Assembly (NCBI GenBank): GCA_034226945.1
Contig: CP120455.1
Location: 992,001 to 1,056,000, forward strand
DNA length: 64,000 bases
DNA from: Picochlorum sp. SENEW3
Taxonomy: Eukaryota
Reading direction: 5' to 3'
Of the stretch, positions 123 through 33,246 are shown in pieces; the stretch's first letter is position 1; the number at the start of each line of letters is the position of its first letter. Under the pieces are notes generated by a model that searched no databases, was not told the DNA's origin, and was given only the letters and a program-made list of their open reading frames with translations. Position numbers and translations under genes: made by a program.

Positions 123-3100
123 CTACCTGGCAAGGTCCCAGCGGTGCTCAGAAGCTCGCCAACGAATGATGGGGAGACATGTCTGAGCTGCCGACCCGGG
201 AGAAAGGCTATCTTTATAAGCATCTAATACCTCATTGAATGTGCTGATGAGGGTGTCAATAAACTGGGCAGATGTAGCGTCTGCCGAGGCCTTGAAGATC
301 TGTCGTCGAATATCATCCAAGCTATAACTGCACGCCACCACGATGAGACCCCAAGTGTCCGAGGGGTATGGAAGATGTGATGGAGGCTGATTGATCCAAA
401 TGGAATGCAACACCTGGGTGACTGGAATGCCAATACCTGTGGCAAGGTGCTGATATAGGCTACAAGCTATGCTGCATTCTGTGGTATAATAATGGTTTCT
501 ACCTGGTGTGGCATTTGAGTGGCCACAAACACATGCTTTTTCTTTCTGCGTCTTCTGAGCATTCACCTGTGTATCCATGAGGATCTCCCAGAAAGGGAGT
601 TTATAGATAGAGGGGAGCTGAAGCTGTTGCAAAGGCTTGAAGATGCTGTGGAGTGGTCTAGGCACACTCGCTATGATCTCAAGCCAGCTCCGGAGGCGTC
701 TGCGTCGGTGCTGTCTATCTACTCGTGTGAACAAGCTAGTTCCTTGCTTCACTGTATATGTATCTAATGTCATAGAGCATTTAGGGTGTATCTGCCATCC
801 TAGTTCGCCTTGAAGGCCATTCATGACATATGTTCCTGTCTCCTGATTCTGGAGTATGGCCCTCTGAAGATCTGCGAGATGGTATGCATAGATGCTAGAT
901 GTAAATAATAAGGTAGGTGGCTCGTACCGTAAATAAGCAGGCTCGTGATGGTAAACTGTGGGCTGGAGCTCAAAATTGGGAACAGCCGGGATGCCTTTCT
1001 GTAGAAGGTGGATGGGCAAACAGGCAGGTATGCCTGTATGTTGACCATCCTGCATCTTCAAAAAGATATTCCACGCTAATTGAACCCATGCTTTCTCGGC
1101 GCCACCTGTGAATAAAAGAATATACCACTTCAAATCACGCGCAGATAGGTGGGCCTGAAGGGGTAAACAGCCAAGGCCTCCTTCTGTTGGATGGGCTGCA
1201 AAAGCTGTGCTTCTCCAAAAATTGCTCTGGAGGAGTTGGCGTATGGCTGTCCAGACTTCCTTTACTTGTGCTTGAGTGGGCTTCACAACTTCTGCATAGT
1301 ATAAATCTTTAGGAAGCAGGTATGTCGAGACAATTCTCAATTTGCTAAATGGTGATAAATGTCTTGCTTTGACTTTTCGAATGGCTGTTTTCAGTTTGGC
1401 GACTCGAGTGTCCCAGTCTATGGCAAAGGCGCCTGTATGTGCCTGGACCTGGAAACCTAGGATTGTTGCTTCACTCACCACCTGTAGCCCTGCGATTGTC
1501 CGGGGGTGCTCTGCCGGCTGTCCAATGGGGAGGAGCAATGTTTTGGTCATATTCAGGACCTGTCCAGTGCCTCGTCCAAATCGATGCATGATGTTGATGA
1601 ATCGCGAGACATCCGCGTAACTACTTAATGGTACCGTGTTGTCATCTGCATATTGTAATGTAGGAATATAGAGCTCGTGAGGGCAGCGCTGTAGTCCTCC
1701 GTGAAGATAGTGTTGCATCTTGTGTGTCAGTGGCAGTCTGATGCCAATTCTGTGTGTTTCTAGCCATCTGGCGAGGATATGGCCGATCAAAAGGTACAAA
1801 TATGGAGAGACAGGATCGCCCTGGCGTACGCCTGCTTCAAATTTTCTGCGTTTGGAAAATGCTCCATTATAGTAGACCTGACTATACGTATTCTCCAGCA
1901 AGACCGCGATCCAGTGTTGGAGTGAGGGAGGCATCTGCAAGCATTGGCAAATTTTCATGAGAAATCGTCGATCAACCTTATCATATGCTTTGGAAAAGTC
2001 GCAAACCGCTAGGAAGGCTGATTTCTGCTCAAGTTGCAAGTGCTGTGGAATGAGTTGGAGAGGCCACACTTTATCCATAGGGCTCCGCCCTGGCAGAAAG
2101 GCTGTCTGTGTGGGGCTGATCAACTGCTGCAACGGTCCTTTCAATTTCGCAAGAAGTATCTGAGTAAAAATTCGATAATCTGTGTTGAGTAGGGTGATGG
2201 GTCTGTAATTGATGGCCTGATACCTCGGTCCTTTTTTGTAAATAGGGATAATGAGACCCACTAGAAAGGACTGAGGCATGTCGTGCAAGAGACCAGTGAA
2301 GACTTTGGCCAATATCGGGGTCAAGGAGTCCTTCAAGAGCCGATACGTGACAATTTTAATGCCATCTAGGCCTGCTGCCGTGGGCTTCATTCGTTTGATG
2401 GCATTCCTGACATCTTGTTCTGTGATCATGTCGGGGAAATCCTGTGCTTGAAAAACTGTTCGATCTGCTGGCGTGAGGGAGTGTAGGATTTCCTCCTGAA
2501 TCTCTTCTGATAATATGTCCTGTTGTGAAATGTCTGCATAGTGGTCAATGAGGATATTTGCACAGGCCGTCGAGTCCCCTTGTAACTGCTGGTGGCGATC
2601 TTGAAGTCTGTAATCGGTGGTGGAATATCTGTATGGGGTCAACGGCATGGCATGACTTTCTGTGTCTGCATCCCATTGTTGTTCAGCATTCGGCTGATGA
2701 TCTACATGAGCGTAGCGATGTTGGAGCTGATGACTGGTGAAAGCGCTCATGGCTGCTTCTTGCTCTCGAAGTTGTCTGACAGCCTCCAGTTCTTTACCTC
2801 GAAATTTCCGTTGTGCACTGTACGACAGGCGTGCAATGGTGCCTTTGAGGTCAAGCCATGTCGTATAATTGATCGTATCTTGTCTGGCAAGGGGGCGAAA
2901 GCGCTGAGAACATTCATCACGGAAATTCTGCAAGATGCTGGCATCGTTTCTGAATTGAGTTGGGATGCGTCTTCTGTAGGCCTTCTGCTTCGGGGTGGTG
3001 ATCGGAGTCTGGCGCCTGAGCGCCACGATAACCGCCGCGTGATCTGTGTGGACCACCGAAGATTCAATTGACTGCACTGTGATGGATTTCAGAAGTGGTT

Positions 3101-3809
3101 CCAATTGCTTTGAACCATAGAATCTGTCTAATCTGCTCTTGGTGACGCAACGTGGGTCTTGCTGTGTCACATGCTCGTGTGTATAGGCAGCTCGGTCCCT
3201 GAGGGTACTGCTGCCCAAGTCGCATATATCTGTGCTGTCAAACGCAGTGGCCCATAATTTCGCTGTGCGTCTGTATGGATGTGCTCTGTGGAGGGTGGTC
3301 GTTGTATCACGTTGATGTGAGACAAAATTATAGTCACCTCCCCAGAGAACCGGTTGGCTGTTCTCCAGTTGTTGTTTCAGGATGCGAATGCATGGCTGTA
3401 TATCCGAATCGCGTGCTGAGCCTGTATTAGGAAAATATACCGAGCTAATACGCACGTCTAATCCAGGTCCTTTGAAACGGCCTGTCAGTATCCTGCTTGG
3501 AATATCGTGCATGATGGGGCTAAATGTATAAGACTGCTCTAGTAGTCGTCTCCTGACCAAAATGGCCACTCCTTGCCGAGGTCTTGCCTTATTGGTTGTC
3601 TGGTTTAATGCACTGCCCCAGTAACATTGCCAAGGGTGGAGGGATCGTTCAATCTGACGTATGCGATGATCATCTGTGAGTAGATGGGTCTCCTGCAATA
3701 GTACAATATCAATATGTAATCTTTCCAGTTCCACGTGTAAAGCTAATGCTTTGTCAACGTTGAGACCATTAACGTTGAGACTATAGATTCTGAGTGTCTG
3801 TGGCGTCAT
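123..3809 (-). CDS. LINE ORF2: AP endonuclease + reverse transcriptase + C-terminal zinc-binding motif (~1228 aa from ATG 3809)
   Basis: SLNVNGL, LLQETH, GGDYN, SRLDRFY, TDHAAV (APE); NYRPITLLN, DFSKAYD, GVRQGDPVSP, QYADD (RT); CVCG...H...EC near the C-terminus. The track start at 3854 is TTG; the first ATG is 3809. Confidence 0.95.
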   Translation of the reverse strand: MTPQTLRIYSLNVNGLNVDKALALHVELERLHIDIVLLQETHLLTDDHRIRQIERSLHPWQCYWGSALNQTTNKARPRQGVAILVRRRLLEQSYTFSPIMHDIPSRILTGRFKGPGLDVRISSVYFPNTGSARDSDIQPCIRILKQQLENSQPVLWGGDYNFVSHQRDTTTTLHRAHPYRRTAKLWATAFDSTDICDLGSSTLRDRAAYTHEHVTQQDPRCVTKSRLDRFYGSKQLEPLLKSITVQSIESSVVHTDHAAVIVALRRQTPITTPKQKAYRRRIPTQFRNDASILQNFRDECSQRFRPLARQDTINYTTWLDLKGTIARLSYSAQRKFRGKELEAVRQLREQEAAMSAFTSHQLQHRYAHVDHQPNAEQQWDADTESHAMPLTPYRYSTTDYRLQDRHQQLQGDSTACANILIDHYADISQQDILSEEIQEEILHSLTPADRTVFQAQDFPDMITEQDVRNAIKRMKPTAAGLDGIKIVTYRLLKDSLTPILAKVFTGLLHDMPQSFLVGLIIPIYKKGPRYQAINYRPITLLNTDYRIFTQILLAKLKGPLQQLISPTQTAFLPGRSPMDKVWPLQLIPQHLQLEQKSAFLAVCDFSKAYDKVDRRFLMKICQCLQMPPSLQHWIAVLLENTYSQVYYNGAFSKRRKFEAGVRQGDPVSPYLYLLIGHILARWLETHRIGIRLPLTHKMQHYLHGGLQRCPHELYIPTLQYADDNTVPLSSYADVSRFINIMHRFGRGTGQVLNMTKTLLLPIGQPAEHPRTIAGLQVVSEATILGFQVQAHTGAFAIDWDTRVAKLKTAIRKVKARHLSPFSKLRIVSTYLLPKDLYYAEVVKPTQAQVKEVWTAIRQLLQSNFWRSTAFAAHPTEGGLGCLPLQAHLSARDLKWYILLFTGGAEKAWVQLAWNIFLKMQDGQHTGIPACLPIHLLQKGIPAVPNFELQPTVYHHEPAYLRYEPPTLLFTSSIYAYHLADLQRAILQNQETGTYVMNGLQGELGWQIHPKCSMTLDTYTVKQGTSLFTRVDRQHRRRRLRSWLEIIASVPRPLHSIFKPLQQLQLPSIYKLPFWEILMDTQVNAQKTQKEKACVCGHSNATPGRNHYYTTECSIACSLYQHLATGIGIPVTQVLHSIWINQPPSHLPYPSDTWGLIVVACSYSLDDIRRQIFKASADATSAQFIDTLISTFNEVLDAYKDSLSPGSAAQTCLPIIRWRASEHRWDLAR

Positions 3810-3850
3810 CTTGATGGTATATATATATTGATGTATGCCTGGGGCATGGG

Positions 3851-4873
3851 TCAAAGATCATCCATGATCTCAGGATTTTGCTCCAGACAGGCTGCAATTT
3901 CTTGGAGCTCCTGTGCATGGATAGCATCCTCCTGAAGCAGCGACGGTTCTGCTAGCTGTATAGGGATGGGTGCTGGCTGCGGCGGAGATTTTCTTTGTAT
4001 CTCTGGGCTGGGTCTCCGTCTGTCCATACCTCGTTGTGAGGCGTTCGAGAACAACACAGTGCGAGAACGCTTCGTAGGAGTACTCGGGTACATCGCCTGG
4101 TTGGTCATGAGAGCCTCCCGATAGTTTGTCGGGTTCTTGGACTCTGCATAGTCTGCCCTGGCTTCTGCCAGTGCCTGTCGGCCTGAGCGGAAGGGCATCT
4201 GTCTGTGTACTGCCGTTATCCTGTGGAGAGTGAGCTTCAATGATCTGTCTCCGAACATGAACTCGATCGGTTCAATTTTGGCCAGGTTATCAACTTCCAT
4301 AGTGGCAATCCATGAGGCTTGCGTCACCTGTTTGTCACCTCCCCATTGTTCCTTCTTGTGAGCGACTTTGGTGGGATGCAGTCCTGTAGCTTCCAGGGCT
4401 GCTTTGGCCATGGAGGGATCCACGATAGCCACATCAGCTTGCTGATCCCAAAGGTCCATGGAAAAATCCTGTTGACGTGTGCGATTTGGCCACACGATTT
4501 CAACGAGCTGTTCGCTTTCGTCAACAACCATTGGAATCGTATCCTCGGGAGCAAGAGCGTCAACTGTTTCGAGCATGTCCTCAAAGGTCTGAAAACCGCA
4601 TTGCAATATGGCACAATAATTGGCTGTTTTGCCGCCGATTGGGCCCCTCACGTAAAACCATTTGGTGTCACGTGGGATGGTGAAGAACGTATCTTCCGGA
4701 AGATGTTTCTCAAGGAAAGCAAGGCACGCGTCCCTGAAGAGAGACATCCGTTCTTCCACATATGAGTTCGCATCATGATGAAGGAACCAAAACTTCTGGG
4801 GATTGTGAATCTCCAGGCGGAGGTTGAACCTTACCTCACGGCGAAACGCAGGTGGAATTGCTTGGGTCGACAT
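3851..4873 (-). CDS. LINE ORF1 (putative RNA-binding/chaperone protein, 340 aa)
   Basis: Intact ATG-initiated ORF directly upstream of ORF2 on the same strand; basic, Pro-rich C-terminal region; no recognisable domain. Confidence 0.8.
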   Translation of the reverse strand: MSTQAIPPAFRREVRFNLRLEIHNPQKFWFLHHDANSYVEERMSLFRDACLAFLEKHLPEDTFFTIPRDTKWFYVRGPIGGKTANYCAILQCGFQTFEDMLETVDALAPEDTIPMVVDESEQLVEIVWPNRTRQQDFSMDLWDQQADVAIVDPSMAKAALEATGLHPTKVAHKKEQWGGDKQVTQASWIATMEVDNLAKIEPIEFMFGDRSLKLTLHRITAVHRQMPFRSGRQALAEARADYAESKNPTNYREALMTNQAMYPSTPTKRSRTVLFSNASQRGMDRRRPSPEIQRKSPPQPAPIPIQLAEPSLLQEDAIHAQELQEIAACLEQNPEIMDDL

Positions 4874-4981
4874 TCTCGATAATGCTGGTATCGGAACGAT
4901 ATAATAAACGCAAAGAGAGCGGGTTTTGATAAATTTCGTGTCTGAACGATTTTTATAGAATTAGTTATTGAGTATGCTCAG

Positions 4982-5785
4982 TTGCAACAGCAGAAGAGCA
5001 CACTCGTCCAGCAGCAGCCCAATGTGCCCAAGAATCAAGATCAAGACGACTCTGATGGCGACGAATCGTACTCCGACAAATGGGAGGAGTTTCATGGGAT
5101 CCATTCAACAGGTCGATTCTTCAAGGAGAAGAGATATTTGACCAAGGAATTTCCGCGCTTGCTTGAGCAAGACCCACGATCGATTGGACAACCCCATCGC
5201 ATCGGTGAAATAGGATGTGGATGTGGATCGGCACTGATACCAGTTTTACGAGAGAATTCTGAGGCTGTTGCTGTCGCATGTGATGTATCTTCGACTGCTA
5301 TAGGCGTATTTGATGACATGTGCTCCCAGGCTGGGATTGACAGACGTCGGGTACAACTTCATGTGCACTCTTCAGGACGGACGGAATGTGTTACTTCAAG
5401 TCCCTTTTCCAGCAAAAGCATAGATACAATGATGATCGTTTTCACCCTATCTGCGTTTCATCCACGCGATATACAGGCTGTATTGAAAGAGGCCTGGGAT
5501 TCATTAGATTCAGGAGGAATTCTCTTGTTACGCGACTACGGTCTGTATGACATGGCGCACCTGCGGTTCACCGGAAAGCAGTTGGTTGATCCAGAGTACT
5601 TGGTATATCAGCGTGCAGAAGGGACGCTGTCATACTTCTTCTCCGTGGAATCCTTGCAGAAGATGACAGAACAAGCTGGATTTGTAACTGATGAATGCAA
5701 ATATGTGACCACGTATGTTACAAACCTGAAGAAAAACAGGAAAATGAGACGGGTATTTATCCATGGCGTGTTTAAAAAACCATGA
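4982..5785 (+). CDS. METTL6: SAM-dependent tRNA m3C methyltransferase (METTL2/6-like); 5' exon and start codon not found in the window
   Basis: KWEEFH..H...FFKEKRYL..EFP, EIGCGCG, AVACDVS, FTLSA, LLRDYGLYDMAHLRF, YQRAEGTLSYFFS, MRRVFIHGVF. Confidence 0.85.
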   Translation: MQQQKSTLVQQQPNVPKNQDQDDSDGDESYSDKWEEFHGIHSTGRFFKEKRYLTKEFPRLLEQDPRSIGQPHRIGEIGCGCGSALIPVLRENSEAVAVACDVSSTAIGVFDDMCSQAGIDRRRVQLHVHSSGRTECVTSSPFSSKSIDTMMIVFTLSAFHPRDIQAVLKEAWDSLDSGGILLLRDYGLYDMAHLRFTGKQLVDPEYLVYQRAEGTLSYFFSVESLQKMTEQAGFVTDECKYVTTYVTNLKKNRKMRRVFIHGVFKKP

Positions 5786-18456: not shown

Positions 18457-20259
18457 CTATTGTTTCTGATTCTTTCCGTACTGTTTCTTCTCGCCTTGCT
18501 GCTCACCATCTCCTCTCTTCTCTCCATTCTTTCCGTACTGCTTTCTCTCTCCCTCACCCTCTCCATTCTTGTCACCTTGTCCCTTTTTCTCTCCATTCTT
18601 ATTGTGGAGAAGCTTGCGGCTTGAGCTTTCCTGTCCATTATTTTTTCCGTACTGTTTCTTCTCACCTTGCTGCTCACCATCTCCCTTCTTCTCTCCATTC
18701 TTTCCGTATTGTTTCTTCTCACCATCACCATCACCATTCTTCTCGCCTTGTCCCTTCTTCCCTCCATTCTTTCCGTACTGTTTCTTCTCACCTTGCTGCT
18801 CACCATCTCCCTTCTTCCCTCCATTCTTTCCGTATTGTTTCTTCTCACCATCACCATCACCATTCTTATTGTGGAGAAGCTTGCGGCTTGAGCTTTCTTG
18901 TCCATTATTTTTTCCATATTGCTTTTTTTCACCATGCTCTACACCATCTCCATTCTTCTCTCCATTCTTGCCATATTGTTTCTTCTCACCATCACCATCA
19001 CCATTTTTCTCGCCTTGTCCCTTCTTCCCTCCATTCTTTCCGTAGTGTTTCTTCTCACCATCACCATCACCATCACCATTCTTATTGTGGAGAAGCTTGC
19101 GGCTTGAGCTTTCTTGTCCATTATTTTTTCCGTACTGCTTTTTTTCACCATGCTCTACACCATCTCCATTCTTCTCTCCATTCTTGCCATATTGTTTCTT
19201 CTCACCATCACCATCACCATTCTTGTCGCCATCTCCCTTCTTCTCTCCATTCTTTTTTCCATATTGCTTCTTCTCACCCTCACCATTCTTGTCGCCTTGC
19301 CCCTTCTGTTGCTTCTCCTCTCCATTTTTGTTATGGAGAAGCTTACGGCTTGAGCTTTCCTCTCCATTCTTTTTTCCATATTGCTTTTTCTCACCATCAC
19401 CATTCTTGTCGCCATGCCCCTTCTGTTGCTTCTCCTCTCCATTTTTGTTATGGAGAAGCTTACGGCTTGAGCTTTCCTCTCCATTCTTTTTTCCATATTG
19501 CTTTTTGTCACCATCACCATTCTTGTCGCCATCTCCCTTCTTCTCTCCATTATTTTTTCCAGTTCTCTTCTTCTGGCCTTCTTGCTCACCATCCCCTCTC
19601 TTCTCCCCATTCTTCTTTCCCTTTTGCCTCTTCTTTTCCTCTCCATGCAACAGCTTGCGACTCGTCTCCATCGAATCGTCATCCAAGAGATCTGATGTCT
19701 CCTCACCGTCATCCTCCTCAAGCTCCATCACACCTTCCACACGGTCAATCTGTGGACCCTGTGCCATCCCGTTCATTGACATATTTTTTGATCCATTCGT
19801 AAGAATTCTTCTCGTAAGCTCTGTCCCATCTGGCAAGATTGCCATATCCTCCTCTGAACAAGGCACAGTGAAGGATGACTCCACAACATACTTGTTCTCC
19901 TCACTCCCATTCTGCTCACAAGCCTCCGTCACCACCACAGTCCTCATGACATCAGTAATATTCGCATTGCATACAGAAAGAATCTCTTGGTCCTCTTCTG
20001 TCTGCAACATGGAGTCAGAAAGGTACATCTGCGTTGCCTTCTTTGCCACAGAAAACGAGCCACGCATGCCAGACTGCGTCGTCACCGGACCAAACGATCC
20101 CATAGGACCATATGATACTTGAACACATGCGTCAGTACCTTCTGAGGCGTCATCAACCTGCCACCAGTCTGGTGAACCACCCATATTGCCAGACGCGTTG
20201 GCTGCACCCAACAGTAATGGGGTGGTCAGCATGAACAAGGATGCCTTCTTGATTGCCAT
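18457..20259 (-). CDS. Secreted repeat-rich precursor-like protein (600 aa from ATG 20259)
   Basis: Signal-peptide-like MAIKKASLFMLTTPLLLGAANA, Cys-containing acidic N-domain, then G/K/E/N repeats punctuated by RKLLH. Confidence 0.8.
   Translation of the reverse strand: MAIKKASLFMLTTPLLLGAANASGNMGGSPDWWQVDDASEGTDACVQVSYGPMGSFGPVTTQSGMRGSFSVAKKATQMYLSDSMLQTEEDQEILSVCNANITDVMRTVVVTEACEQNGSEENKYVVESSFTVPCSEEDMAILPDGTELTRRILTNGSKNMSMNGMAQGPQIDRVEGVMELEEDDGEETSDLLDDDSMETSRKLLHGEEKKRQKGKKNGEKRGDGEQEGQKKRTGKNNGEKKGDGDKNGDGDKKQYGKKNGEESSSRKLLHNKNGEEKQQKGHGDKNGDGEKKQYGKKNGEESSSRKLLHNKNGEEKQQKGQGDKNGEGEKKQYGKKNGEKKGDGDKNGDGDGEKKQYGKNGEKNGDGVEHGEKKQYGKNNGQESSSRKLLHNKNGDGDGDGEKKHYGKNGGKKGQGEKNGDGDGEKKQYGKNGEKNGDGVEHGEKKQYGKNNGQESSSRKLLHNKNGDGDGEKKQYGKNGGKKGDGEQQGEKKQYGKNGGKKGQGEKNGDGDGEKKQYGKNGEKKGDGEQQGEKKQYGKNNGQESSSRKLLHNKNGEKKGQGDKNGEGEGERKQYGKNGEKRGDGEQQGEKKQYGKNQKQ
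18460..19662. repeat. Imperfect coding tandem repeat array (~1.2 kb) built from shuffled short modules
   Basis: Recurrent CTCACCATCACCATC, GAAGCTT(G/A)CGGCTTGAGCTTTC and TTTCCGTA(C/T)TG(T/C)TT blocks. Confidence 0.95.
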
Positions 20260-20824
20260 GATGTATTTCTTCAACGAGCGTGTCTCCCTCAAAATATTTT
20301 GAATATAAAATTATAAATATGGAGTACTATGAAAGGCCTTCGTGTATATGAGATCTCAGAGAAACGCGTTTACAGCCCCGTGCCTCCATGCAGTTTGTCA
20401 GACGCACGAGGATCACGTGACCCAATGGAGCACCACGACTCGGTCAACGCGTCGTGGGAAGCCATATCGACCCGGTCCCCATGGCACTCTTTTTCAACAA
20501 TTGACACGTAAAATAGAATTCTTCGGTTATGATATACCAGTATAGTAATATTCACCCTCAAAATTTCATCGAATCCATGGTTGTACATCCAAGCCTTGTC
20601 TGTTGAACGGAGCCGTTCTTCAAACGATCGGTCCTTCGATCAACGCATAGAATCGACCGTTCGTGATGCACTCGTCTCCACCACATGGCGTCAACTCGGG
20701 CAAACTCCGTGGATTGAATCGATCGAGGGATTATAACCATCGGCAAACAACTAAAACCCTTGTAAAAATATCGGTGACCTGTCGGATTTGCAAAGCATCA
20801 CAACATTGCAGTCATTTTTTCGAC

Positions 20825-21840: not shown

Positions 21841-23623
21841 ATGGGTGTGGAGACGACGTGGACCAAGCTTGGCAACCATGCCAGCGAGATTGCTTCAAAA
21901 ACGCATCTGAAAACCCTTTTAAAGGATGAAGAGAGAACAAAGAGTCTAACATATGCCCACAATGGGGTGTATATTGATTTCTCTAGGCAAAATGCGACTG
22001 TGGAAACGCAATCGGTAGGTTTTCAAAGACTTTATACAATGCTGTGGTTTGGTGCGAGGATTGCGATGGGAATGTGCTTGTAATATGTAGATGTTGATGG
22101 ATCTGGCGAGGGAATGCAAGGTGGAGGAGAAGATTGCACGCATGTTTCAGGGAGATCATTTGAACGAGACTGAGGACAGAGCGGTTTTGCACGTTGCTTT
22201 ACGGGCTCCTCGAGATGCGTCGATGTTTGATAAAGGAAATAATGTTGTACCGGGTGTATGGGAGGTTTTGGACAAGATCAAAGAGTTTTCTGCTCGTGTG
22301 AGGGAAGGACAGGTGACAGGGGTGACTGGGAAACCTCTGACTCAATTTGTTGCAATTGGGATTGGTGGGTCGTATCTCGGTCCTGCGTTTATTCACAATG
22401 CGTTGGAGAATGATCCAGAAGCTCTGAAGAATGCTGATGGGAGGACACTGACGTTTTTGGCCAATGTGGATCCTGTAGATTGTGTGAATGCATTAAAGCA
22501 CTTGGATCCTGAGAGGACTCTTGCTATTATTGTTAGCAAAACATTTACGACGGCAGAGACAATGCGTAATGCGAGAACTGTAAGGGCCTGGCTAATAAAG
22601 AATCTTGGGGATGAGTCGATTGCGAAACATATGGTTGCTGTGTCAACAAATCTCAAAGGTGTTGAGGAGTTTGGGATTAATCCTGAGAATACATTTGGAT
22701 TTTGGGACTGGGTAGGTGGGAGATTCTCTGCATCCTCCGCTGTTGGAGCATTGCCGTTGTCATTGCAATATGGTTTTGATATTTTTGACAAATTCTTGCA
22801 AGGTATGAGGGATATTGATGAACATGTGTCATCCTCTCCCTTGGAGCAGAATATTCCAGTGCTGATGGGCCTTTACAATGTGTGGAATACTACATTCTTG
22901 GGGCATTCAACCTGTGCTATTTTACCGTATGCGCAAGCTTTGTCACAGTTTCCTGCCCATGTTCAGCAGTTATCGATGGAGAGTAATGGAAAGGGTGTTG
23001 CCATGGATGGGTCTCCTCTCCCATACCAGGTTGGTGAGATTGATTTTGGAGAGGCTGGAACAAACGGGCAGCATTCATTCTATCAGCTTGTGCACCAGGG
23101 TCGAGTGGTGCCTGCAGAATTTATTGGAGTTTTGAAGAGTCAGCAGGATGTGTTTCTGAGCGAGGAGCAATCCTCCAGCCACGAAGAGTTGCTCTGCAAC
23201 TTTTTTGCCCAGCCAGATGCCCTAGCAACCGGAAAAAGCGCCGAAGAGCTGCGTGACGAGGGGGTTCCTGAGGCATTGATTCCTCATAAGACTTTTACAG
23301 GTAACAGACCATCAATGTCTCTGGTTCTACCTGCGCTTGATGCCTTCCGGATTGGACAACTGTTATCGCTCTATGAGCACAGGATTGCTGTCAGCGGCTT
23401 TATCTGGAACATCAACTCGTTCGATCAATGGGGCGTTGAGCTTGGAAAAGTGCTGGCTGGAAAAGTCAGAAAAGAGCTTGTACGTGCTCGAGGAGAGGGA
23501 ACGGGTGCTTCTGACGGATTCAATCACAGCACCCGTGCCATGCTCAACATGTATTTGGAACATGCAGGTGGTGTAACTCCAAAGGAGGGTGACGATATCT
23601 TCCCGACGCAATTGCTCCGATAA
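21841..23623 (+). CDS. GPI: Cytosolic glucose-6-phosphate isomerase; exons 21841-22014 and 22091-23623
   Basis: [76 protein letters not shown]. Confidence 0.97.
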
Positions 23624-25412: not shown

Positions 25413-25785
25413 TATGAGGAACATTGATGATGAACATGTGTCATCCTCTCCCTTGGACCAGAATATTCCAGTGTTGATGCCTTTATACTGTGTTGAATAC
25501 TACATTCTTGGGGCATTCAAATTGTGCTATTTTTTTTACTGTATGCGCAAGCTTTGTCACAGCTTCCTGTTCAGCAGTTATTGATGGAGAGTAGTGGAAA
25601 GGGTGTTGCCATGGATGGGTCTCCTCTCCCATACCAGGTTGGCGAGATTGATTTTGGAGAGGCTGGAATTGTATGCCTCTAACGGATTCAATCACAGCAC
25701 CATGGTCAACATGTATGTGGAACATGCAGGTGGTGTGACTCCCAAGGATGATGATGGTATCTTCACCACGCAATTGCTCCGGTAA
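25413..25785 (+). pseudogene. Decayed partial duplicate of the GPI 3' region
   Basis: Aligns by eye to 22804-23060 and ~23505-23623 with frameshifting indels and a ~440-bp internal deletion. Confidence 0.92.
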
Positions 25786-27724: not shown

Positions 27725-29096
27725 TCATGATTCCAATTCTGCCGCGTATCTCTCTAACCGAGCTTGCTGCTCCTCTTCTGTTTCCTCAAGAGCATGCTGT
27801 TTGACCAAAAAGTCTGTGATACCATCCCACGCCTCTGCGGTGATCTGTCTCCCTCCAAACCATCTTCCATGCATTGTTTTGATACATGACTTGCAATCAT
27901 CGGGATTCTTATATTTCACGACAATAACTCCCTCTGGGTTTGTATGAAACACGCGCACTTTATCAACAGGACCAATTCTGTTGCACTCATCCCTCACATC
28001 CTCTTGCAATTCATGCTTCAAATCCACATTCTCAGCCATCTCTTCCAATGTGAACATGTATTTCAGAACCACAGTCACCAACTCTGGCTTTATTTTATCA
28101 TCAAAGCCTTTCCAACCAAGCGCCTTTCTCTCCTGCATCTCTGCAATCTGCTTCTTCCTCTTCTTGGACACTGCATCCTTCTTCACAAAAGTATTTCCCT
28201 TTTGCTCAAACTTGGCCTCGCTAATACTCATGGTTGTATCCAAACCATATCGCAATGGTGTACCATCCAATATATCAATGGCCAACTGGACACTAGGAGC
28301 CTTGAGATATGTCACCAACCCATCCCCTTTGAGCACATCATTGTGCTCTTTGTCTCTATACAGTTTTATCCGAGGCCCATTCGTCTCGGGATCTATTTTA
28401 ATCACTCCACATTTGCTAAACACCTGTTCCATCTCCTGAACAGTAACATCCTGAGGAAGCCCTTGAACATACACGCTTGTATTCTTCTTGGCATCAAACC
28501 ATTGTTCATTCCTGGCCCTTGCCTGCTTCCCCTTCTCCGATCGCTCTTGCGCTGCGAGCAACGCAGCTTTCCGCCGTATCACATCTTCATTACCGTCATC
28601 TGATGGACCCGCCCCTCCATCAGGATACACCATATCATTCACAGAATACCCCGTGTTCTTGTCCGTCTCCTCCTGCTGCATATCAGAAGGGATGTATTTC
28701 CCCGCAGCAGCATCCCACTCATATCGAGTTCCATCGTCATCTACAAACGCTTCATGCTCGTCTACTTCGTTTCCGGTCGTCCCAGCATGTACATGGGCAC
28801 CAGTGCCTATAATCTCGGGAACAGCAGAGACTGGCTTCCACTCCTGCCCAAACTCCCGTCTCCATACGAGGGCACGAACATTCCCAGATGGGCCTAACAG
28901 AATTTCTATAATCACATATGGTATTAGTAATAGTATCAGATCAATCGCAATGAAAGAACTCGTGTGGCATTACAATTGTTGAATACAAGTCTTTCTTGGC
29001 AACGACACACATACCTCGAATAGATGCAGCAGTCACAGGCCCCTGAAGCATATTATCTTTATCTACGTAATACCAACAACGCGCTTCTTCCTGCAT
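27725..29096 (-). CDS. HTATSF1: Tat-SF1/CUS2-like splicing factor (GYF_2 + RRM + UHM); exons ~29096-29015 and 28893-27725
   Basis: WYYVDKDNMLQGP (GYF_2-like), NTSVYVQGLP.DVT, PRIKLY, KGDGLVTYLK.PSV.LAI, VVLKYMF, MHGRWFGGRQI. Confidence 0.9.
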
Positions 29097-29259
29097 TGTT
29101 CAGTGCTTCCTACAGGACCAACATGTCACATGTGAACGCCTGTCTCAGAAAGCTGATACACTGTTCATTTGAGATGCGCACCCAACAATTCTTCTACTAC
29201 TTTTGATCAATGATGACAATACTTATGGAATGGATTCATTCAATCGCGCACATCTATGC

Positions 29260-30108
29260 TCATTCTCCAATGGCATCTCTGCCAGGCTGGCATGGGTATT
29301 CCTTATGGTGTATTTTAAAAGTACGCATGATGCGCTTGATAGCACGACGCACGCGTCCATGAGGTATCGGTTTTGAAAAAGGTTCGTACTGCTCGACTCG
29401 AGGATACAAATACCCCGGCTGCCATGGCATATCCGACATGCCATGGACTCGCTCATATACCTGCCCAGTCTCTCGGTGCCTCCATGTCATGGTCACAGAG
29501 TAGGTGCCACGATGCTTCAGAAACATATCACATATTCGACATGACAATCCGTATGGTCTATAAAAGTCACCCTGTGGGCCCGCATATTTCAAGACGCGCG
29601 AGGTGACGTCCTCCTCTGTGCCCATTGACAACCCATAGAATCTGCGCAACACAGCCTTCTGAAGTGTCACAGTCCCAGCCATGCCCGTGGAATGAAACAC
29701 AGTATCGAGTGACGACAACAACGATTTCTTATATCCTTCTATGAGCGCATCGCCGCGCAACACGATTCGATACTTTTTACCCCGAAACTTGTACCGAACT
29801 TCCGCGCTGCTGGTTCTGCCGCCCCTGTCCAAGAGCTTGCACAGCAGCCCTGTAAAACAACTCGCCTTCTCCTTCCATTGCTGCGTGCAATCACGGACGA
29901 AACCAAACCTTGTTCTCATGCATATTTTATACAGGTATAGATCAGTATATCCCGGGCATCTATACAATATTCGCGGTGGTTTTCTCATGATGCCCTTCAA
30001 GAGAGGAAGGTTCCCTTGCATGCTTTGGCGCAGCACGCCTTGAGACTGTTGCAGAACGACAAGCACATGCTGCAGCAATTGCTGCAGCCAATACATCCGG
30101 AGCAGCAT
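29260..30108 (-). CDS. Hypothetical protein resembling a conserved Nucleocytoviricota family (KYAGP.GDF motif)
   Basis: VRYKFRGKKYR ... TLQKAVL ... DVTSRVLKYAGPQGDFY; intronless; AT-rich leader before ATG 30108; the family resemblance is from memory. Confidence 0.6.
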   Translation of the reverse strand: MLLRMYWLQQLLQHVLVVLQQSQGVLRQSMQGNLPLLKGIMRKPPRILYRCPGYTDLYLYKICMRTRFGFVRDCTQQWKEKASCFTGLLCKLLDRGGRTSSAEVRYKFRGKKYRIVLRGDALIEGYKKSLLSSLDTVFHSTGMAGTVTLQKAVLRRFYGLSMGTEEDVTSRVLKYAGPQGDFYRPYGLSCRICDMFLKHRGTYSVTMTWRHRETGQVYERVHGMSDMPWQPGYLYPRVEQYEPFSKPIPHGRVRRAIKRIMRTFKIHHKEYPCQPGRDAIGE

Positions 30109-30690
30109 TGTATCTATTTCTCTATATAAAATATATTGAATGTCCAAACTCTCAGGATGATGAAGAATGTATCGAGGCGAGCGTGAGCGCTTTCCTGTGT
30201 CTTGTTCTCAACAACAAAGTGGACACTCACTGTCCTCCTCCTCATTGTCCCTCATTCTGATTCTCCATACAATACTTGCCATATAATTAATCTTTTTATA
30301 TACTATAGGGGTCGCAAAGGAAGAATGATTCTCTTTCTCAAGGGTAGCACGGACCCTATCAAAGATGTGGGTGTCCACTTTAATGTGGACCGACAATCAC
30401 CAAAATCATATTGCTCCTTGCAGCACACCTCGACACCCAAGCAATAGTTACGTGATAGCACTCTATTGCAATGATGAGACGTCATGAATGACACATGCGA
30501 AACCCAATGGGATCTTGCAAGAGAGAGTACTATTCATATTCAAATTTGAAACATTGAAAAAATTCAACTGTTTTATAAAATCATTCGCAATCAATCCATA
30601 TGCGGTATATTATTTATATATCGATATTCATTATTGAATATCGAACAATACTTCTAAGGAACAGTTTGCTCAATTCCAGCAAGGTTTATC

Positions 30691-31086
30691 ATGTCTCGTT
30701 CATATCAAAGAGAGCTTGAGTATCTCGAGAAACTTCTCGAGAAGGGTGTCAACGCCACCGCCAAACACTGGATTCAATATCTTATTAAAAATCCTCATGA
30801 AATCGAATTCGAGTTACTGACCAGTGGGAACGCTGGCGCGTGGCTAGCGAAGACTCCCGCCATCTTGCAAAAGTGGAACAACCAACTCATGTTTGTTCAA
30901 TTTCTTGATGGAAACACGTGGAACTGTTCTCCACTGAATTTGAGGATGACCTCACTCCCTGTTATTTTGAATCAGTGGGATGACGAACACTGGAGAACTG
31001 ATTGGGATCTGGAACTGAATGTATCCGAAATTCAACTCGTTTTGAATCCCAACTGGAGACATGGTCTTGTCATGAGAAGGAATTAA
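30691..31086 (+). CDS. Hypothetical 131-aa Trp-rich protein with degenerate HNH-like motif, possibly of giant-virus origin
   Basis: VQFLDGNTWNCSPLNLR resembles V.H.DGN..N....NL; WRTDWDLEL; clean ATG..TAA in an AT-rich context. Confidence 0.6.
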   Translation: MSRSYQRELEYLEKLLEKGVNATAKHWIQYLIKNPHEIEFELLTSGNAGAWLAKTPAILQKWNNQLMFVQFLDGNTWNCSPLNLRMTSLPVILNQWDDEHWRTDWDLELNVSEIQLVLNPNWRHGLVMRRN

Positions 31087-31528
31087 TCTGCATGATTGCA
31101 TGATGATGATGAAATTTCTCGTATATTTTTGTAACACTCTCATCGTATGCATATTCTATTATAATTCAATCTACTATTTTTGAATTATGTTGAAATCAAT
31201 TCCATTTCAATCAATGATGACAAACAAGAACACTGAGAAAGAGACTTGAGTCTCTTTTATTCTTCTATTCTAGGAAAAAGAGAGACCTTTCGAGGCAATC
31301 CCTGCAGTTGAAGCATCAACAATCCCCTTGTGGCTGATACAGATGAGTAATCAATCCCATTATTTACAAATGTATGCATACTAGCAACTCTCTAGGAGCG
31401 GATCCTCATATTGTGTTGTTCATCCGAGTCAACGGGGACATTGTGCCACGCACACACAGTTCACTCCTCGCAGGTGTACAGCGTTTCTGCGAGTTAGATA
31501 GATTTGGTTTATGCATATATAGGCTACA

Positions 31529-33246
31529 ATGGCTAGAAAAATTGTATCTAAACTCCGACATGTGGATTTCTATCGGAAGATTCCGAGGTAGGTTCTGCAA
31601 AGTGCAAAAGATGCCGATCTGCCGCTGGCTTTTAGGATTATGTTGCTGTTATGGATGAATATTGTGCTTTTCTATCAATACTACACGTGTAGTTGTATAT
31701 TAATGGGTCCCCTTGTATCTGTGTAGTGATCTGACGGAGGCCACGTTGGCGGGTGGTTCCCTGTCTATTGCAGCAGCTGTGTTTATTGCATTTCTGGTCG
31801 TGGCTGTACGTGTCGGATCATTGATGTATTCTTCATATCAATATAAGATGAATAATGGCCTGATTATTACAGGAGTTTAAATCGTTCATGGCGTTGGAAA
31901 CAGAGAGCCATATGGTTGTTGATAGAAGTCCTCCTGGGGAGTTGTTGAGGGTTAATTTCAATATTTCATTCCCTGCTCTCTCCTGTGAGTATGCCACATT
32001 AGATGTGAGTGATGCGATTGGATCGAAAAAGCTTAATCTGACGAAAACAGTGCGGAAGACGGTGATTGATGAGGTGTCCCTGAGGAGGGTTGGGCGCTCT
32101 GTGGAAGACTTCCAGAGGCCAGAGCCAAAGTATGACGACGCCGTGGTTGACTTTGACGATGAGGATTTTGATGAAGAAGACTTTAAGCAGTCGTTGAATG
32201 AAAAGACGTGGGATGCTCATATGAAGCATTATGATGTGGTGGTTGTGAATTTCTTTGCTCCGTGGTGCTCATGGTGCCAGCAGTTGTCACCAACATGGGA
32301 GGCTGTCACCCAAGCTATTCACGAGAAGTATCCAGAGAGCGATGGGCGTATTCGTATGGCAAAAGTGGATTGCGTGGCGAATAAAAAGCTGTGTGTTGAA
32401 CACCAGATTACCGCATATCCATCGATTCGAATCTTCATCCATGGGTCTGATGATGTTACGGTACGGTACACGTGTGGTAGTACTCACTATTCGTATGTTT
32501 TGCATCTCTGAGCGCTTGTCTTGTGTATGCAGAATGTCATGGGTCAACACATGCATCTTGCGTATTATGGAGACAGGACGATGGAGGCGTTGACAAGATT
32601 GGCAGAGCAGGCTGCCGTGGCACAGGGCAAACCCCATCACGGAATCACACAAGCAAGCACGGTAAGCCAAGAGGGAAGTGGATGCAATTTCCAGGGAATG
32701 ATTTTAGCCAAAAAGGTGCCAGGCACGCTTCATTTTTCAGCCAGAGCACCCGGCCATTCCGTCGATTACATGAACATGAACATGTCCCACCACGTGCATC
32801 ACTTTTACTTTGGCAACAAACCCACCCCTCGTCGCAGAAAAGCCTTGGTCCAGTACCACCCATTAGGATTGACCTCAGATTGGTCTGATAAACTCTCAGG
32901 AATGGCATTCGTGTCCAACTATGTCGGAGCCACATTTGAACACTATTTACAGACAGTCTTGACATCAATTCAGCCAAAGAAGAACAAGTGGGCCCGGTTT
33001 GATGCTTATGAATACACTGCTCAAAGCCACACGTATGATACCGCAGACCACGCGTCTGTCAAGTTTACATACAAAATGTCGCCGATTCAAATCGTGGTGA
33101 ACGAAAAGTCAAAGCCTTTGTATCATTTCATTACCGCCATGTGTGCTGTTGTCGGTGGAGTCTTTACAGTCTTGGGAATGCTGGATTCGGCAGTCTATTC
33201 GGCAAAATCGTTGAAGAAAAAAGTTGATCTGGGAAAGCAGGGATGA
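31529..33246 (+). CDS. PDI-C / ERGIC (Erv41/46-like) protein with thioredoxin domain; exons 31529-31587, 31727-31805, 31873-32460, 32533-33246
   Basis: LRHVDFYRKIP.DLTEATLAG, VNFNISFPALSCEYATLDVSD, FFAPWCSWC, KKVPGTLHFS, CAVVGGVFTV.G, KKVDLGKQG. Confidence 0.9.

Follow-up and report, generated by a model that had tools for sequence, protein, structure and literature searches.

The present study indicates that a gene pair on contig CP120455.1 of Picochlorum sp. SENEW3 probably goes back to an old virus-to-alga gene acquisition and is now an ordinary host gene pair, the repeat that flanks it being younger. We propose that the two genes, ORF1 and ORF2, which are divergent, intronless and single-copy, are resident and vertically inherited in this Picochlorum-type trebouxiophyte, between ordinary cellular genes. 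They lie in the window, that is, the whole stretch of 64,000 nucleotides (nt) that was analysed (forward-strand positions 992,001 to 1,056,000, assembly GCA_034226945.1), in the following arrangement:

27725 to 29096, minus strand: 5' part of a Tat-SF1-like gene flanking the interval (predicted gene model)
27725 to 28915, with a short first exon whose ATG is at 29094 to 29096, minus strand: putative exons of the Tat-SF1-like gene, the former being a large exon ORF
29260 to 30108, minus strand: ORF1 (coding 29263 to 30108, plus stop), 282 aa, with a DUF5772-like domain
30109 to 30690, no strand: AT-rich spacer of about 580 nt between the divergent start codons, GC 0.375
30691 to 31086, plus strand: ORF2, 131 aa plus stop, lineage-restricted
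31130 to 31134, plus strand: TGTAA, 44 nt past the ORF2 stop, candidate polyadenylation signal
31529 to 33246, plus strand: PDI-C-like flanking gene with ERGIC_N, thioredoxin and COPII-coated ERV domains (predicted gene model)
31529 to 31531, plus strand: ATG of the PDI-C-like gene, read from the sequence

The Tat-SF1-like gene has an RRM_1 match in a Pfam scan (E 1.9e-16), and its ATG and GT intron start are visible in the sequence. The gap between its ATG and that of the PDI-C-like gene is 2432 nt, and subtraction of 2004 nt leaves 428 nt. The two ORFs between the flanking repeats are divergent, intronless and free of internal stops, and the spacer separating them is presumed from the gene arrangement to be a shared bidirectional promoter. 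Among 16 neighbouring ORFs scanned within 18–41 kb, nine matched Pfam families, all of cellular type (including rhomboid, PGI, ligand-gated channel, ERV, RRM proteins, CoaE, fasciclin and RPC1), seven had no match, and no viral hallmark gene or viral gene block was detected. Scans across 28.0–32.5 kb returned no Rfam families or tRNAs. The GC3 values of ORF1 (0.56) and ORF2 (0.50), compared with 0.42–0.53 for six neighbouring genes, show that the base composition of the interval is host-like, unlike that of a recent foreign insert.

The original prediction had described both ORFs as giant-virus-like orphan genes, and the viral part of this description holds for ORF1. A single-protein scan of viral contigs with ORF1 gave no match, and its match to Pfam DUF5772 (PF19080; 19.2 bits, E 0.0012, 23 residues) is below the gathering cut-off of 26.9 bits; all five Picochlorum-type members match DUF5772 weakly (best E 0.00064). 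A profile built from Picochlorum-type sequences only retrieved, among 1.84 billion representatives, 28 distant proteins (E 3.6e-8 to 6.7e-4), 18 of which match DUF5772 at E ≤ 0.01, two of them above the family cut-off, and two of the 28 are NCBI-named chlorovirus proteins. A profile without any Picochlorum row in turn recovered ORF1 from the window's ORF set at E 5.6e-19, and hhalign comparison of the ORF1 alignment with 22 viral or unnamed members gave 99.3% (E 9e-21, 116 columns). The family is present at 17 IMG/VR loci, three of which are on records of 331–369 kb, where it occurs as tandem pairs, and PF19080 appears in the precomputed annotation of 8/21 proteins from a wider search. Across the 1.84 and 5.8 billion proteins searched, the named proteins of the family were from chloroviruses and Picochlorum only. 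With homology demonstrated in this way, ORF1 is assigned, on sequence comparison, to a chlorovirus/phycodnavirus family as a diverged, DUF5772-like member.

Chlorovirus DUF5772-type proteins (for example, the NCBI-named PBCV KS1B_475L, CvsA1_554L and CviKI_537L) and phycodnavirus-like metagenomic relatives have two conserved blocks in common with ORF1, E-V-R-Y-x(3-4)-G-K-K-Y-R-x-V-L-R and D-V-T-x-R-V-x-K-Y-x-G-P-x-x-D-F-x(4-5)-G-L-x-x-x-V-x-D-M-F, and the profile matches between them and ORF1 are reciprocal. Unlike the viral proteins, ORF1 is a chromosomal, syntenic algal gene on a long branch; it is counted as longer (282 aa against about 150–290 aa), and the viral F-P-F-D-D-H tail is replaced in it by a Picochlorum-specific C-terminal region, TMTWRHRETGQVYER...PWQPGYLYP. 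As regards function, PHROGs and NCBIfam gave no match for ORF1, PDB sequence profiles reached E 0.12 and 0.44 at best for the two ORFs, the best ESM Atlas scores were 0.88 and 0.80 (low recognition), and the AF2 model of ORF1 is of low confidence (pLDDT 47.6). An N-terminal membrane anchor was considered as a family trait and dropped, a 19-residue stretch with mean hydropathy of at least 1.6 being found in 7/32 rows. A literature search found no paper on DUF5772, and in PMC6141220 virus terms occur in the reference list only.

We infer that virus to alga is the most likely direction of transfer for ORF1, and we propose that ORF1 entered the algal lineage from a chlorovirus- or phycodnavirus-like virus before the sampled Picochlorum-like lineages split. 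The opposite direction, in which the family is native to green algae and was captured by chloroviruses or phycodnaviruses, ORF1 being a fast-evolving algal gene, is considered unlikely. It would accord with the tree, where a long stem (1.34) leads to the Picochlorum clade within an open polytomy and no supported viral clade encloses it, and with the origin of most family members from unnamed Logan, ENA or JGI contigs that are possibly algal. Trebouxiophytes are hosts of chloroviruses, with gene exchange known to take place between the two, and this was also counted in favour of a native algal family. The row nearest to the Picochlorum clade in the tree (P0034) was not found on any IMG/VR contig. 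However, the named members are confined to chloroviruses and Picochlorum, with no other annotated green alga in the 1.84 and 5.8 billion proteins searched; the family is diverse in viral contigs (the 17 loci), with tandem paralogues in large chlorovirus-type records; and midpoint rooting places viral rows on both sides of the root.

The evidence that ORF1 has long been resident in the alga starts from its gene model. ORF1 is longer than the minimal ORF, and its start at 30108 is backed by the NCBI model P0003 and by locus L001, which has Val where ORF1 has an internal Met. L001, from a diverged relative whose Tat-SF1 is 82% identical to that of the window, was the sole locus returned from 76 pattern matches. 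In L001 the ORF1 homologue (531-1355) is directly upstream of Tat-SF1 (1760-2560) on the same strand, the placement seen in the window, and the Tat-SF1-like ATGs of the two loci align; the synteny demonstrated in this relative covers ORF1 and the left junction only, as L001 ends before the expected ORF2 start. Between the window and L001, the Nei–Gojobori dN/dS of ORF1 is 0.25 (dS 0.84, 268 codons) and that of its N-terminal 58 codons 0.26, compared with 0.13 (dS 0.63) for Tat-SF1, and the dS of ORF1 is in line with that of this neighbour. Selection is likewise demonstrated by these ratios, at the level of sequence comparison, and ORF1 is under purifying selection; we propose that it has been kept by such selection since its entry, as a fast-evolving host gene.

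Homologues of ORF1 in Picochlorum-like assemblies show 94, 77 and 68% identity, the closest of them being annotated as a hypothetical protein from Picochlorum sp. BPE23; those of ORF2 show 93, 90, 75 and 58%, with start and length conserved; the identity tiers of the two genes match, and the reading frames are intact in all homologues of both. The two ORFs are lineage-restricted but no orphans in the strict sense, having homologues at 58–94% identity in Picochlorum-like assemblies. The filled form of the locus is covered by contigs of three DNA runs, and relatives' contigs bridge its junctions (X5 28612-29293 and 30690-31258; X16 31180-31397; X18 31156-31428). In none of the four runs did a contig join across the interval, contigs being a form of data that drops rare variants, and a recently mobile state, as first supposed, receives no support from these contigs. 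In the oligo-dT RNA run X18, short contigs cover portions of ORF1, ORF2 and the right junction and leave other portions uncovered, and RNA-library contigs, which may derive from DNA, cover 29764-30091 and 30659-31428. Because RNA libraries can contain DNA and the contigs carry no strand, we claim neither expression nor silence of the two genes.

ORF2 is a lineage-restricted protein in these comparisons, and its origin was not traced to a virus. No viral relative of ORF2 was found by a single-protein scan of and an alignment search against viral contigs, or by an alignment search against three viral records, and no ORF2-like gene was detected beside viral ORF1 homologues (best E 2.4); the giant-virus label does not extend to ORF2. 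Its conserved motif, V-x-F-L-D-G...N-C...N-L, resembles HNH_3 without the catalytic His. The match to HNH_3 (PF13392; 17.9 bits with E 0.0024, covering positions 19-38 of the 46 in the profile) is below the cut-off of 24.8 bits, such sub-threshold matches occur in 4/5 ORF2 members (best E 0.0017), PHROGs gave an HNH endonuclease at E 0.073, NCBIfam gave no match, and hhalign against six chlorovirus HNH_3 segments gave 11%. ORF2 and HNH_3 homing endonucleases have in common a collinear H-x-I...F-L-D-G-N-x-x-N-C-x-x-x-N-L-x-x-T/S pattern at the HNH_3 core, where the ORF2 model is predicted to have two strands and a short helix; the viral HNH_3 proteins are 320–500 aa in length, against 131 aa for ORF2. 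In an alignment of uncertain register, the catalytic His position corresponds to F71, which is invariant in 5/5 ORF2 homologues, and in the hhalign and Pfam registers, which are equally uncertain, Q-F of ORF2 stands opposite D-H of the viral V-D-H-I-D. The AF2 model is of low confidence (pLDDT 61.5); with it, Foldseek returned no PDB match at E ≤ 0.001, and a wide structural search with the same model (VIA) reached a best Z of 3.0. I-HmuI was discarded as a fold relative, since rank 7, E 8.4 and 28 columns amount to no evidence. HNH_3 homing endonucleases are abundant in chloroviruses, one 369-kb record having 22 matches, 17 of them over the cut-off. The TGTAA downstream of ORF2 is what we take to be the green-algal (chlorophyte) polyadenylation signal.

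The two genes are bracketed by a repeat composed of the following parts:

29193 to 29219, no strand: left direct-repeat copy, comprising a 13/14 segment (29193 to 29206) and an exact 14-mer (29206 to 29219)
29225 to 29236, no strand: left inverted arm, just downstream of the ORF1 stop codon
31170 to 31183, no strand: first segment of the right copy, 13/14 to 29193 to 29206
31194 to 31205, no strand: right inverted arm, inside the 26–27 nt that interrupt the right repeat copy
31210 to 31223, no strand: exact 14-mer of the right copy, followed by ACAA, which is hence tandemly doubled

The window contains exactly two copies of the 14-mer ATCAATGATGACAA (29206-29219 and 31210-31223), to which a search allowing one mismatch adds none, and the left repeat copy lies within the 163 nt separating the ORF1 stop codon from the Tat-SF1 ATG. 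The inverted 12-mers, ATGGAATGGATT on the left and AATCAATTCCAT on the right, match at 11/12 and, with one mismatch allowed, are found in the window only at each other's positions; they do not abut the repeat, being separated from the 14-mer by five unmatched nt (TACTT) on the left and four (TTCA) on the right. The 14-mer pair, the inverted 12-mers, the two divergent ORFs and the arithmetic of the 428-bp gap, all reported in the original prediction, were borne out from the sequence. Upstream of both 14-mer copies, there is a further match of 13/14 between TCTACTACTTTTGA (29193-29206) and TCTACTATTTTTGA (31170-31183), the right-hand segment being on the inner side of the right inverted arm. The left 27 nt thereby recur on the right at 26/27, broken there by 26–27 nt containing the inverted 12-mer.

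A lone 14-mer pair is unremarkable. When maximal exact direct pairs of at least 14 nt were counted, with tandem and duplicated parts of the window masked, 2 of the 19 pairs were spaced 500–5000 nt apart, against 1.0, 1.5 and 2.1 expected from Markov models of order 1, 3 and 5 (60 simulations each). The ATCAATGATGACAA pair is an outlier because a 13/14 upstream match and an inverted pair accompany the 14-mer. The extra 13/14 match was obtained in 0/2500 random and 0/2500 AT-rich control site pairs, and the 11/12 inverted match in 0/3000, 4/3000 and 3/3000 random pairs at spans of 20, 30 and 40, respectively. When 15 sporadic pairs of at least 14 nt were compared, the extras occurred only at the bracketing pair, the other 14 reaching at most 10/14 and 8/12. 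The end similarity taken whole is thus demonstrated by these statistics to be beyond chance. This similarity, together with the fact that the repeats bracket exactly both lineage-specific genes, counts against the reading of the locus as a resident gene pair.

The flanking similarity could also be pure coincidence, without any history, in AT-rich, slippage-prone intergenic DNA, which we consider quite unlikely. Short tandem duplications (ATGGA ATGGA, TTCA TTCA, ACAA ACAA) abound at both ends, one or two 14-mer pairs so spaced are expected in the window, and the pair was selected from a very large scan, in which one-in-a-thousand extras turn up somewhere. However, the two extras are independent, each is seen in at most 0.13% of control pairs, AT-rich ones included, and neither occurs at any of the other 14 sporadic pairs. 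Coincidence is also opposed by the motif TTCAATCAAT, which is not enriched in the window (15 seen against 12.1 expected) and was on that account dropped as a shared regulatory word. The 12-mer matches located near 11.6 kb lack collinearity with the right junction, which led us to judge them as chance.

The age of the repeat bears on how the genes arrived. Between the left copy and its orthologue in L001, identity is 11/14 over the 14-mer and 72% over the region. Because the 26/27 identity within the window far exceeds these values, the repeat is younger than the gene arrangement; the probability of at least 26 of 27 matches at 0.72 is about 0.002 (hand binomial). Relatives X5 and X16 differ from the window in the left copy (29212 G>C, 29217 C>T), and position 29212 is C in X5, X16 and L001 and G in the window. 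The exact 14/14 of the window thus rests on a derived base, as two close relatives and L001 carry C there. Convincing-looking repeats at the ends may postdate the genes that they bracket, so that repeats alone neither date nor prove an insertion.

The original prediction took the interval for a non-autonomous mobile cassette or small endogenous viral element, inserted with short inverted termini and a target-site duplication, which would be the 14 nt or the 27 nt identified here. As an insertion would leave, the repeats bracket exactly two lineage-restricted genes; the ends, taken together, are alike to an outlying degree, the family of ORF1 is a giant-virus one, and a 428-nt divergent gap remains once the 2004 nt are removed. 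We nevertheless judge this origin improbable. ORF1 was beside Tat-SF1 before a split corresponding to dS 0.63–0.84 and is under purifying selection, and in a duplication of that age decay to about 72% identity would be expected in place of the 26/27 observed; the arrangement is conserved in L001 even at the Tat-SF1 dS of 0.63. Further points against it are the dependence of the exact 14/14 on the derived base, the position of the right inverted arm, which is inside the interrupted right copy and on the wrong side of its first segment, the lack of a transposase or integrase, the lack of a contig across the interval in the four runs and the host-like composition. No other insert with the same termini was found in the 64-kb window, where both ORFs and the 12-mer pair are single-copy. 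No eukaryotic cut-and-paste superfamily is known to us that makes target-site duplications of 14 or 27 nt. The locus is similar to MITE-like TIR elements in that a 2-kb unit lacking a transposase is bounded by a short inverted pair with a direct repeat beyond it on either side. It differs from them in that unmatched nucleotides separate the inverted arms from the repeat, the right arm being within the interrupted right repeat, and in that the unit is single-copy in the window, with an interior of two protein genes that we regard as selected and an arrangement older than the repeat. The result that the original prediction named as contrary to it, namely synteny of both ORFs across trebouxiophytes with cellular best hits and no empty site, was obtained in part: ORF1 is syntenic, in Picochlorum-like lineages only, and no empty site was seen, while the non-Picochlorum relatives are viral, not cellular.

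Considering these results, the flanking repeat is best read as a real similarity and not as the target-site duplication of the genes' arrival. The right-hand patch is a mosaic of direct and inverted pieces from one contiguous 44-nt stretch of the left end, and the flanking repeat most likely results from a small local copying event over 2 kb, such as template switching in break repair would give. A different scenario, in our view highly improbable, sees in the locus the domesticated two-gene remnant of one giant-virus integration, with a DUF5772-type gene and a homing-endonuclease derivative of HNH_3 type, catalytically dead, forming a co-regulated divergent pair, for example an antiviral or virus-sensing module, and with the 27-nt repeat and its inverted 12-mer as the scar of integration, whose copies conversion, or a role as recombination core, has kept alike.

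Under the favoured reading, an old acquisition with a younger repeat, the locus adds a small and clean example to the giant-virus genes already known in green algae. PMC11633385 reports Nucleocytoviricota-signature regions in Picochlorum assemblies and describes the green-algal giant-virus regions as having a median length of about 15 kb and the hallmark genes polymerase B, packaging ATPase and primase-helicase. The present locus resembles the regions described there in that a Picochlorum-type nuclear genome holds a gene akin to those of giant viruses; it differs from them in that one small viral-family gene stands among cellular genes, with host-like composition and purifying selection. A chlorovirus-family gene that is fixed, syntenic and selected in a compact alga of the 13-Mb class would make the DUF5772-type family approachable by experiment in a fast-growing, transformable host, and the locus hints at a history of Picochlorum with chlorovirus-like viruses. 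The right end of the interval also varies among relatives, X9 and X16 having a 4-nt deletion at 31220, by which one unit of ACAAACAA is gone and the right 14-mer is left intact.

The interval between the Tat-SF1-like and PDI-C-like genes carries two divergent intronless genes, ORF1 and ORF2, which on the sequence comparisons made here we interpret as a resident, selected and syntenic gene pair (synteny seen for ORF1), not a mobile cassette. The features are as follows.

29094-29096, minus strand: putative ATG of the Tat-SF1-like RRM gene, left flank
29206-29219 and 31210-31223: 14-mer direct repeat ATCAATGATGACAA, exact copies
29225-29236 and 31194-31205: inverted pair, ATGGAATGGATT and AATCAATTCCAT, matching at 11/12
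29225-29245 (minus sense) and 31190-31205 (plus sense): extended inverted alignment of the 12-mer region
30108 (ATG) to 29260-29262 (stop), minus strand: ORF1, 282 aa
30691-31086, plus strand: ORF2, 131 aa
31529-31531, plus strand: putative ATG of the PDI-C-like gene (ERGIC_N, thioredoxin and ERV domains), right flank

The start of ORF1 was set at 30108 because the NCBI model of its closest homologue begins there, the upstream 63 residues are kept in all homologues, and the internal Met (29919) is Val in a relative. With the putative flanking start codons, the predicted 428-nt divergent gap left after removal of the insert is arithmetically correct. The neighbouring genes are of cellular type, both ORFs have host-like GC3, and searches of the locus for RNA families and tRNAs found none. 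The AT-rich spacer between the ORFs contains a 23-nt inverted repeat (30208-30230 and 30367-30389, 83% complementary, 136 nt apart).

The closest homologue of ORF1 is a hypothetical protein of Picochlorum sp. BPE23 (94% identity), followed by homologues at 77% and 68%; those of ORF2 show 93, 90, 75 and 58% identity. The homologues agree in start and length and share many invariant Trp, Asp, Asn and Pro positions. The Tat-SF1-like protein, used as query against metagenome contigs, hit a single locus, L001, from a diverged Picochlorum-like relative (82% identity, residues 1-273). There, just as in the window, Tat-SF1 (1760-2560) is immediately preceded on its own strand by the ORF1 homologue (531-1355); L001 stops short of the expected ORF2 position, and its synteny covers the ORF1/Tat-SF1 side. 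Between the window and L001, dN/dS was 0.25 for ORF1 (dS 0.84), 0.26 for its N-terminal extension and 0.13 for Tat-SF1 (dS 0.63). These ratios and the synteny thus indicate that ORF1 is a real selected gene, present at this site before the two lineages split. Assembled contigs of relatives, from three DNA-type runs and an RNA library, also contained the interval, with the left junction bridged by X5 28612-29293 and the right by X5 30690-31258, X16 31180-31397 and the oligo-dT RNA contig X18 31156-31428. No contig in these sets joined across the interval as an empty site would, which speaks weakly against an empty allele, since contigs can overlook rare alleles. In L001 2560-4030, the Tat-SF1 match ends at residue 273 of 396, and about 340 nt past it a 316-aa ORF (2900-3850) with no Pfam match replaces the C-terminal RRM part; an insertion, an ORF carried within an intron and a chimeric contig are all candidate explanations.

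Both predicted end repeats were found. The 14-mer occurs at its two sites in the whole window, with no third even at one mismatch, and the inverted 12-mers match as described. The observation proved even stronger than first noted, since TCTACTACTTTTGA (29193-29206) and TCTACTATTTTTGA (31170-31183) match at 13/14. Together with the 14-mer, this makes 27 nt of the left end that reappear on the right (26/27), where the copy is interrupted by 26-27 nt containing the inverted 12-mer. The right end looks like a mosaic in which segment A is followed after 10 nt by segment C in reverse complement and, after a further 4 nt, by segment B, all three segments coming from a single contiguous 44-nt left-end stretch (A-B-5 nt-C) that has an orthologue in L001.

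Coincidence is a possible explanation of this end similarity. Repeat pairs were counted after masking of the tandem array and of the window's duplicated part; 19 maximal exact direct pairs of at least 14 nt remained, two of them spaced 500-5000 nt, and simulation predicted means of 1.0, 1.5 and 2.1 such near pairs (Markov order 1, 3 and 5; 60 each). The 14-mer pair alone is thus nothing special. Over the 40 nt preceding each site, a 13/14 match turned up in 0/2500 random and 0/2500 AT-rich pairs, and the 11/12 inverted match just inside in 0/3000, 4/3000 and 3/3000 control pairs (spans of 20, 30 and 40 nt); among 15 sporadic pairs of at least 14 nt in the window, either extra occurred only at this one. 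Being nearly absent from control and other sporadic pairs, these extras argue that the two ends are genuinely related in sequence.

Between the ORF1 stop and the Tat-SF1 ATG, the window aligns with L001 right through the left repeat copy at 72% identity overall, and the left 14-mer matches its orthologue at 11/14. Copies as old as the L001 split should be no more alike than this, so that the 26/27 agreement within the window (P ~0.002 at 72% identity, calculated by hand) argues against the repeat being a scar of the genes' arrival. At 29212, X5, X16 and L001 all carry C, and the window G, which makes the 14-mer match exact, is thus derived; X5 and X16 also differ from the window at 29217. The flanking repeat therefore appears younger than the gene arrangement, and the proposed mobile cassette with a target-site duplication is not upheld, ORF1 being moreover selected and syntenic. 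That the repeat was kept by selection is a possible alternative reading of the likeness of its copies. Under the preferred reading of a late-formed repeat, template switching during break repair may have assembled the right-end mosaic from pieces of the left 44 nt. The anatomy likewise speaks against an element with terminal inverted repeats: 5 and 4 unmatched nt separate the direct repeat from the arms, and the right arm lies within the interrupted right copy. The inverted 12-mer, AATC[C/A]ATTCCAT, stands in the same sense 3' of both stop codons of the diverging ORFs, 24 nt past that of ORF1 and 108 nt past that of ORF2, and might serve the gene pair as a common 3' signal instead of marking an element terminus.

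The original prediction also held that both genes were giant-virus-like, which stands for ORF1. Searched by itself, ORF1 matched DUF5772 (PF19080) below threshold (19.2 bits; cut-off 26.9). A profile of five Picochlorum-type sequences, searched against 1.84 billion representatives, reached 28 proteins beyond its own kind (E 3.6e-8 to 6.7e-4), all over the same core; two are NCBI-named chlorovirus proteins, and 18 match DUF5772 at E<=0.01, two above the cut-off. ORF1 and these relatives share two aligned blocks, EVRY..GKKYR.VLR and DVT.RV.KY.GP..DF....GL...V.DMF. A profile without any Picochlorum sequence recovered ORF1 from the window's ORF set (E 5.6e-19), and hhalign of ORF1 against the family gave 99.3%; the homology to the chlorovirus family is thus secure. 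A pattern scan of IMG/VR gave 17 viral loci with a family member; three lie on records of 331-369 kb, with tandem-paired copies 78-85% identical to a named chlorovirus protein. In the large chlorovirus-type records of L002-L005 (~3960-5230 in each), the DUF5772-type gene is two adjacent same-strand paralogues, whose duplication predates the divergence of these viruses, as the two copies form separate clades in the tree. A quick ML tree recovered Picochlorum as a monophyletic clade (99) with a long stem (1.34), within an unresolved polytomy. Transfer from virus to alga is tentatively favoured, because viral contigs hold a diverse set of family members and the only named cellular proteins in the family are those of Picochlorum, although most members come from unnamed contigs. 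A literature search found no paper with 'DUF5772'.

For ORF2, the viral affinity was not borne out, the searches for a viral relative and for a fold match finding neither. Four of five family members gave a match below cut-off to the homing endonuclease family HNH_3 (PF13392); hhalign against chlorovirus HNH_3 segments was collinear and insignificant (11%), and it aligned the catalytic His position with an invariant Phe of the ORF2 family. The 369-kb viral record holding L004, which is one chlorovirus-type genome, contains 22 HNH_3 matches (loci L019-L024), of which 17 exceed the Pfam cut-off; open frames of 320-500 aa often carry two.

The original interpretation as a captured viral cassette is thus retained for one gene of giant-virus kinship and not for mobility, the pair being apparently resident and the repeat later than the arrangement. 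According to PMC11633385, Picochlorum assemblies contain Nucleocytoviricota-signature regions with a median of ~15 kb and hallmark genes; compared with the regions described there, the present locus is much smaller and older-looking. It adds to the already known phenomenon of virus-derived genes in green algae.

Elsewhere in the window, imperfect tandem repeats are densely arrayed (18460-19550; exact shared blocks up to 92 nt; spacings of 57, 69, 117, 126, 216, 267 nt and more) within a minus-strand ORF (18460-20310). This 617-aa frame has no Pfam match and looks like a gene for a repetitive, low-complexity protein. Further along lies the following gene.

22091-23620, plus strand: phosphoglucose isomerase (PGI) gene

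Several exact blocks of this gene (14-48 nt, from 22816-23620) recur collinearly 2162-2614 nt downstream at 25428-25781, which points to a probable direct duplication of part of the PGI sequence, lying past the ligand-gated-channel gene.
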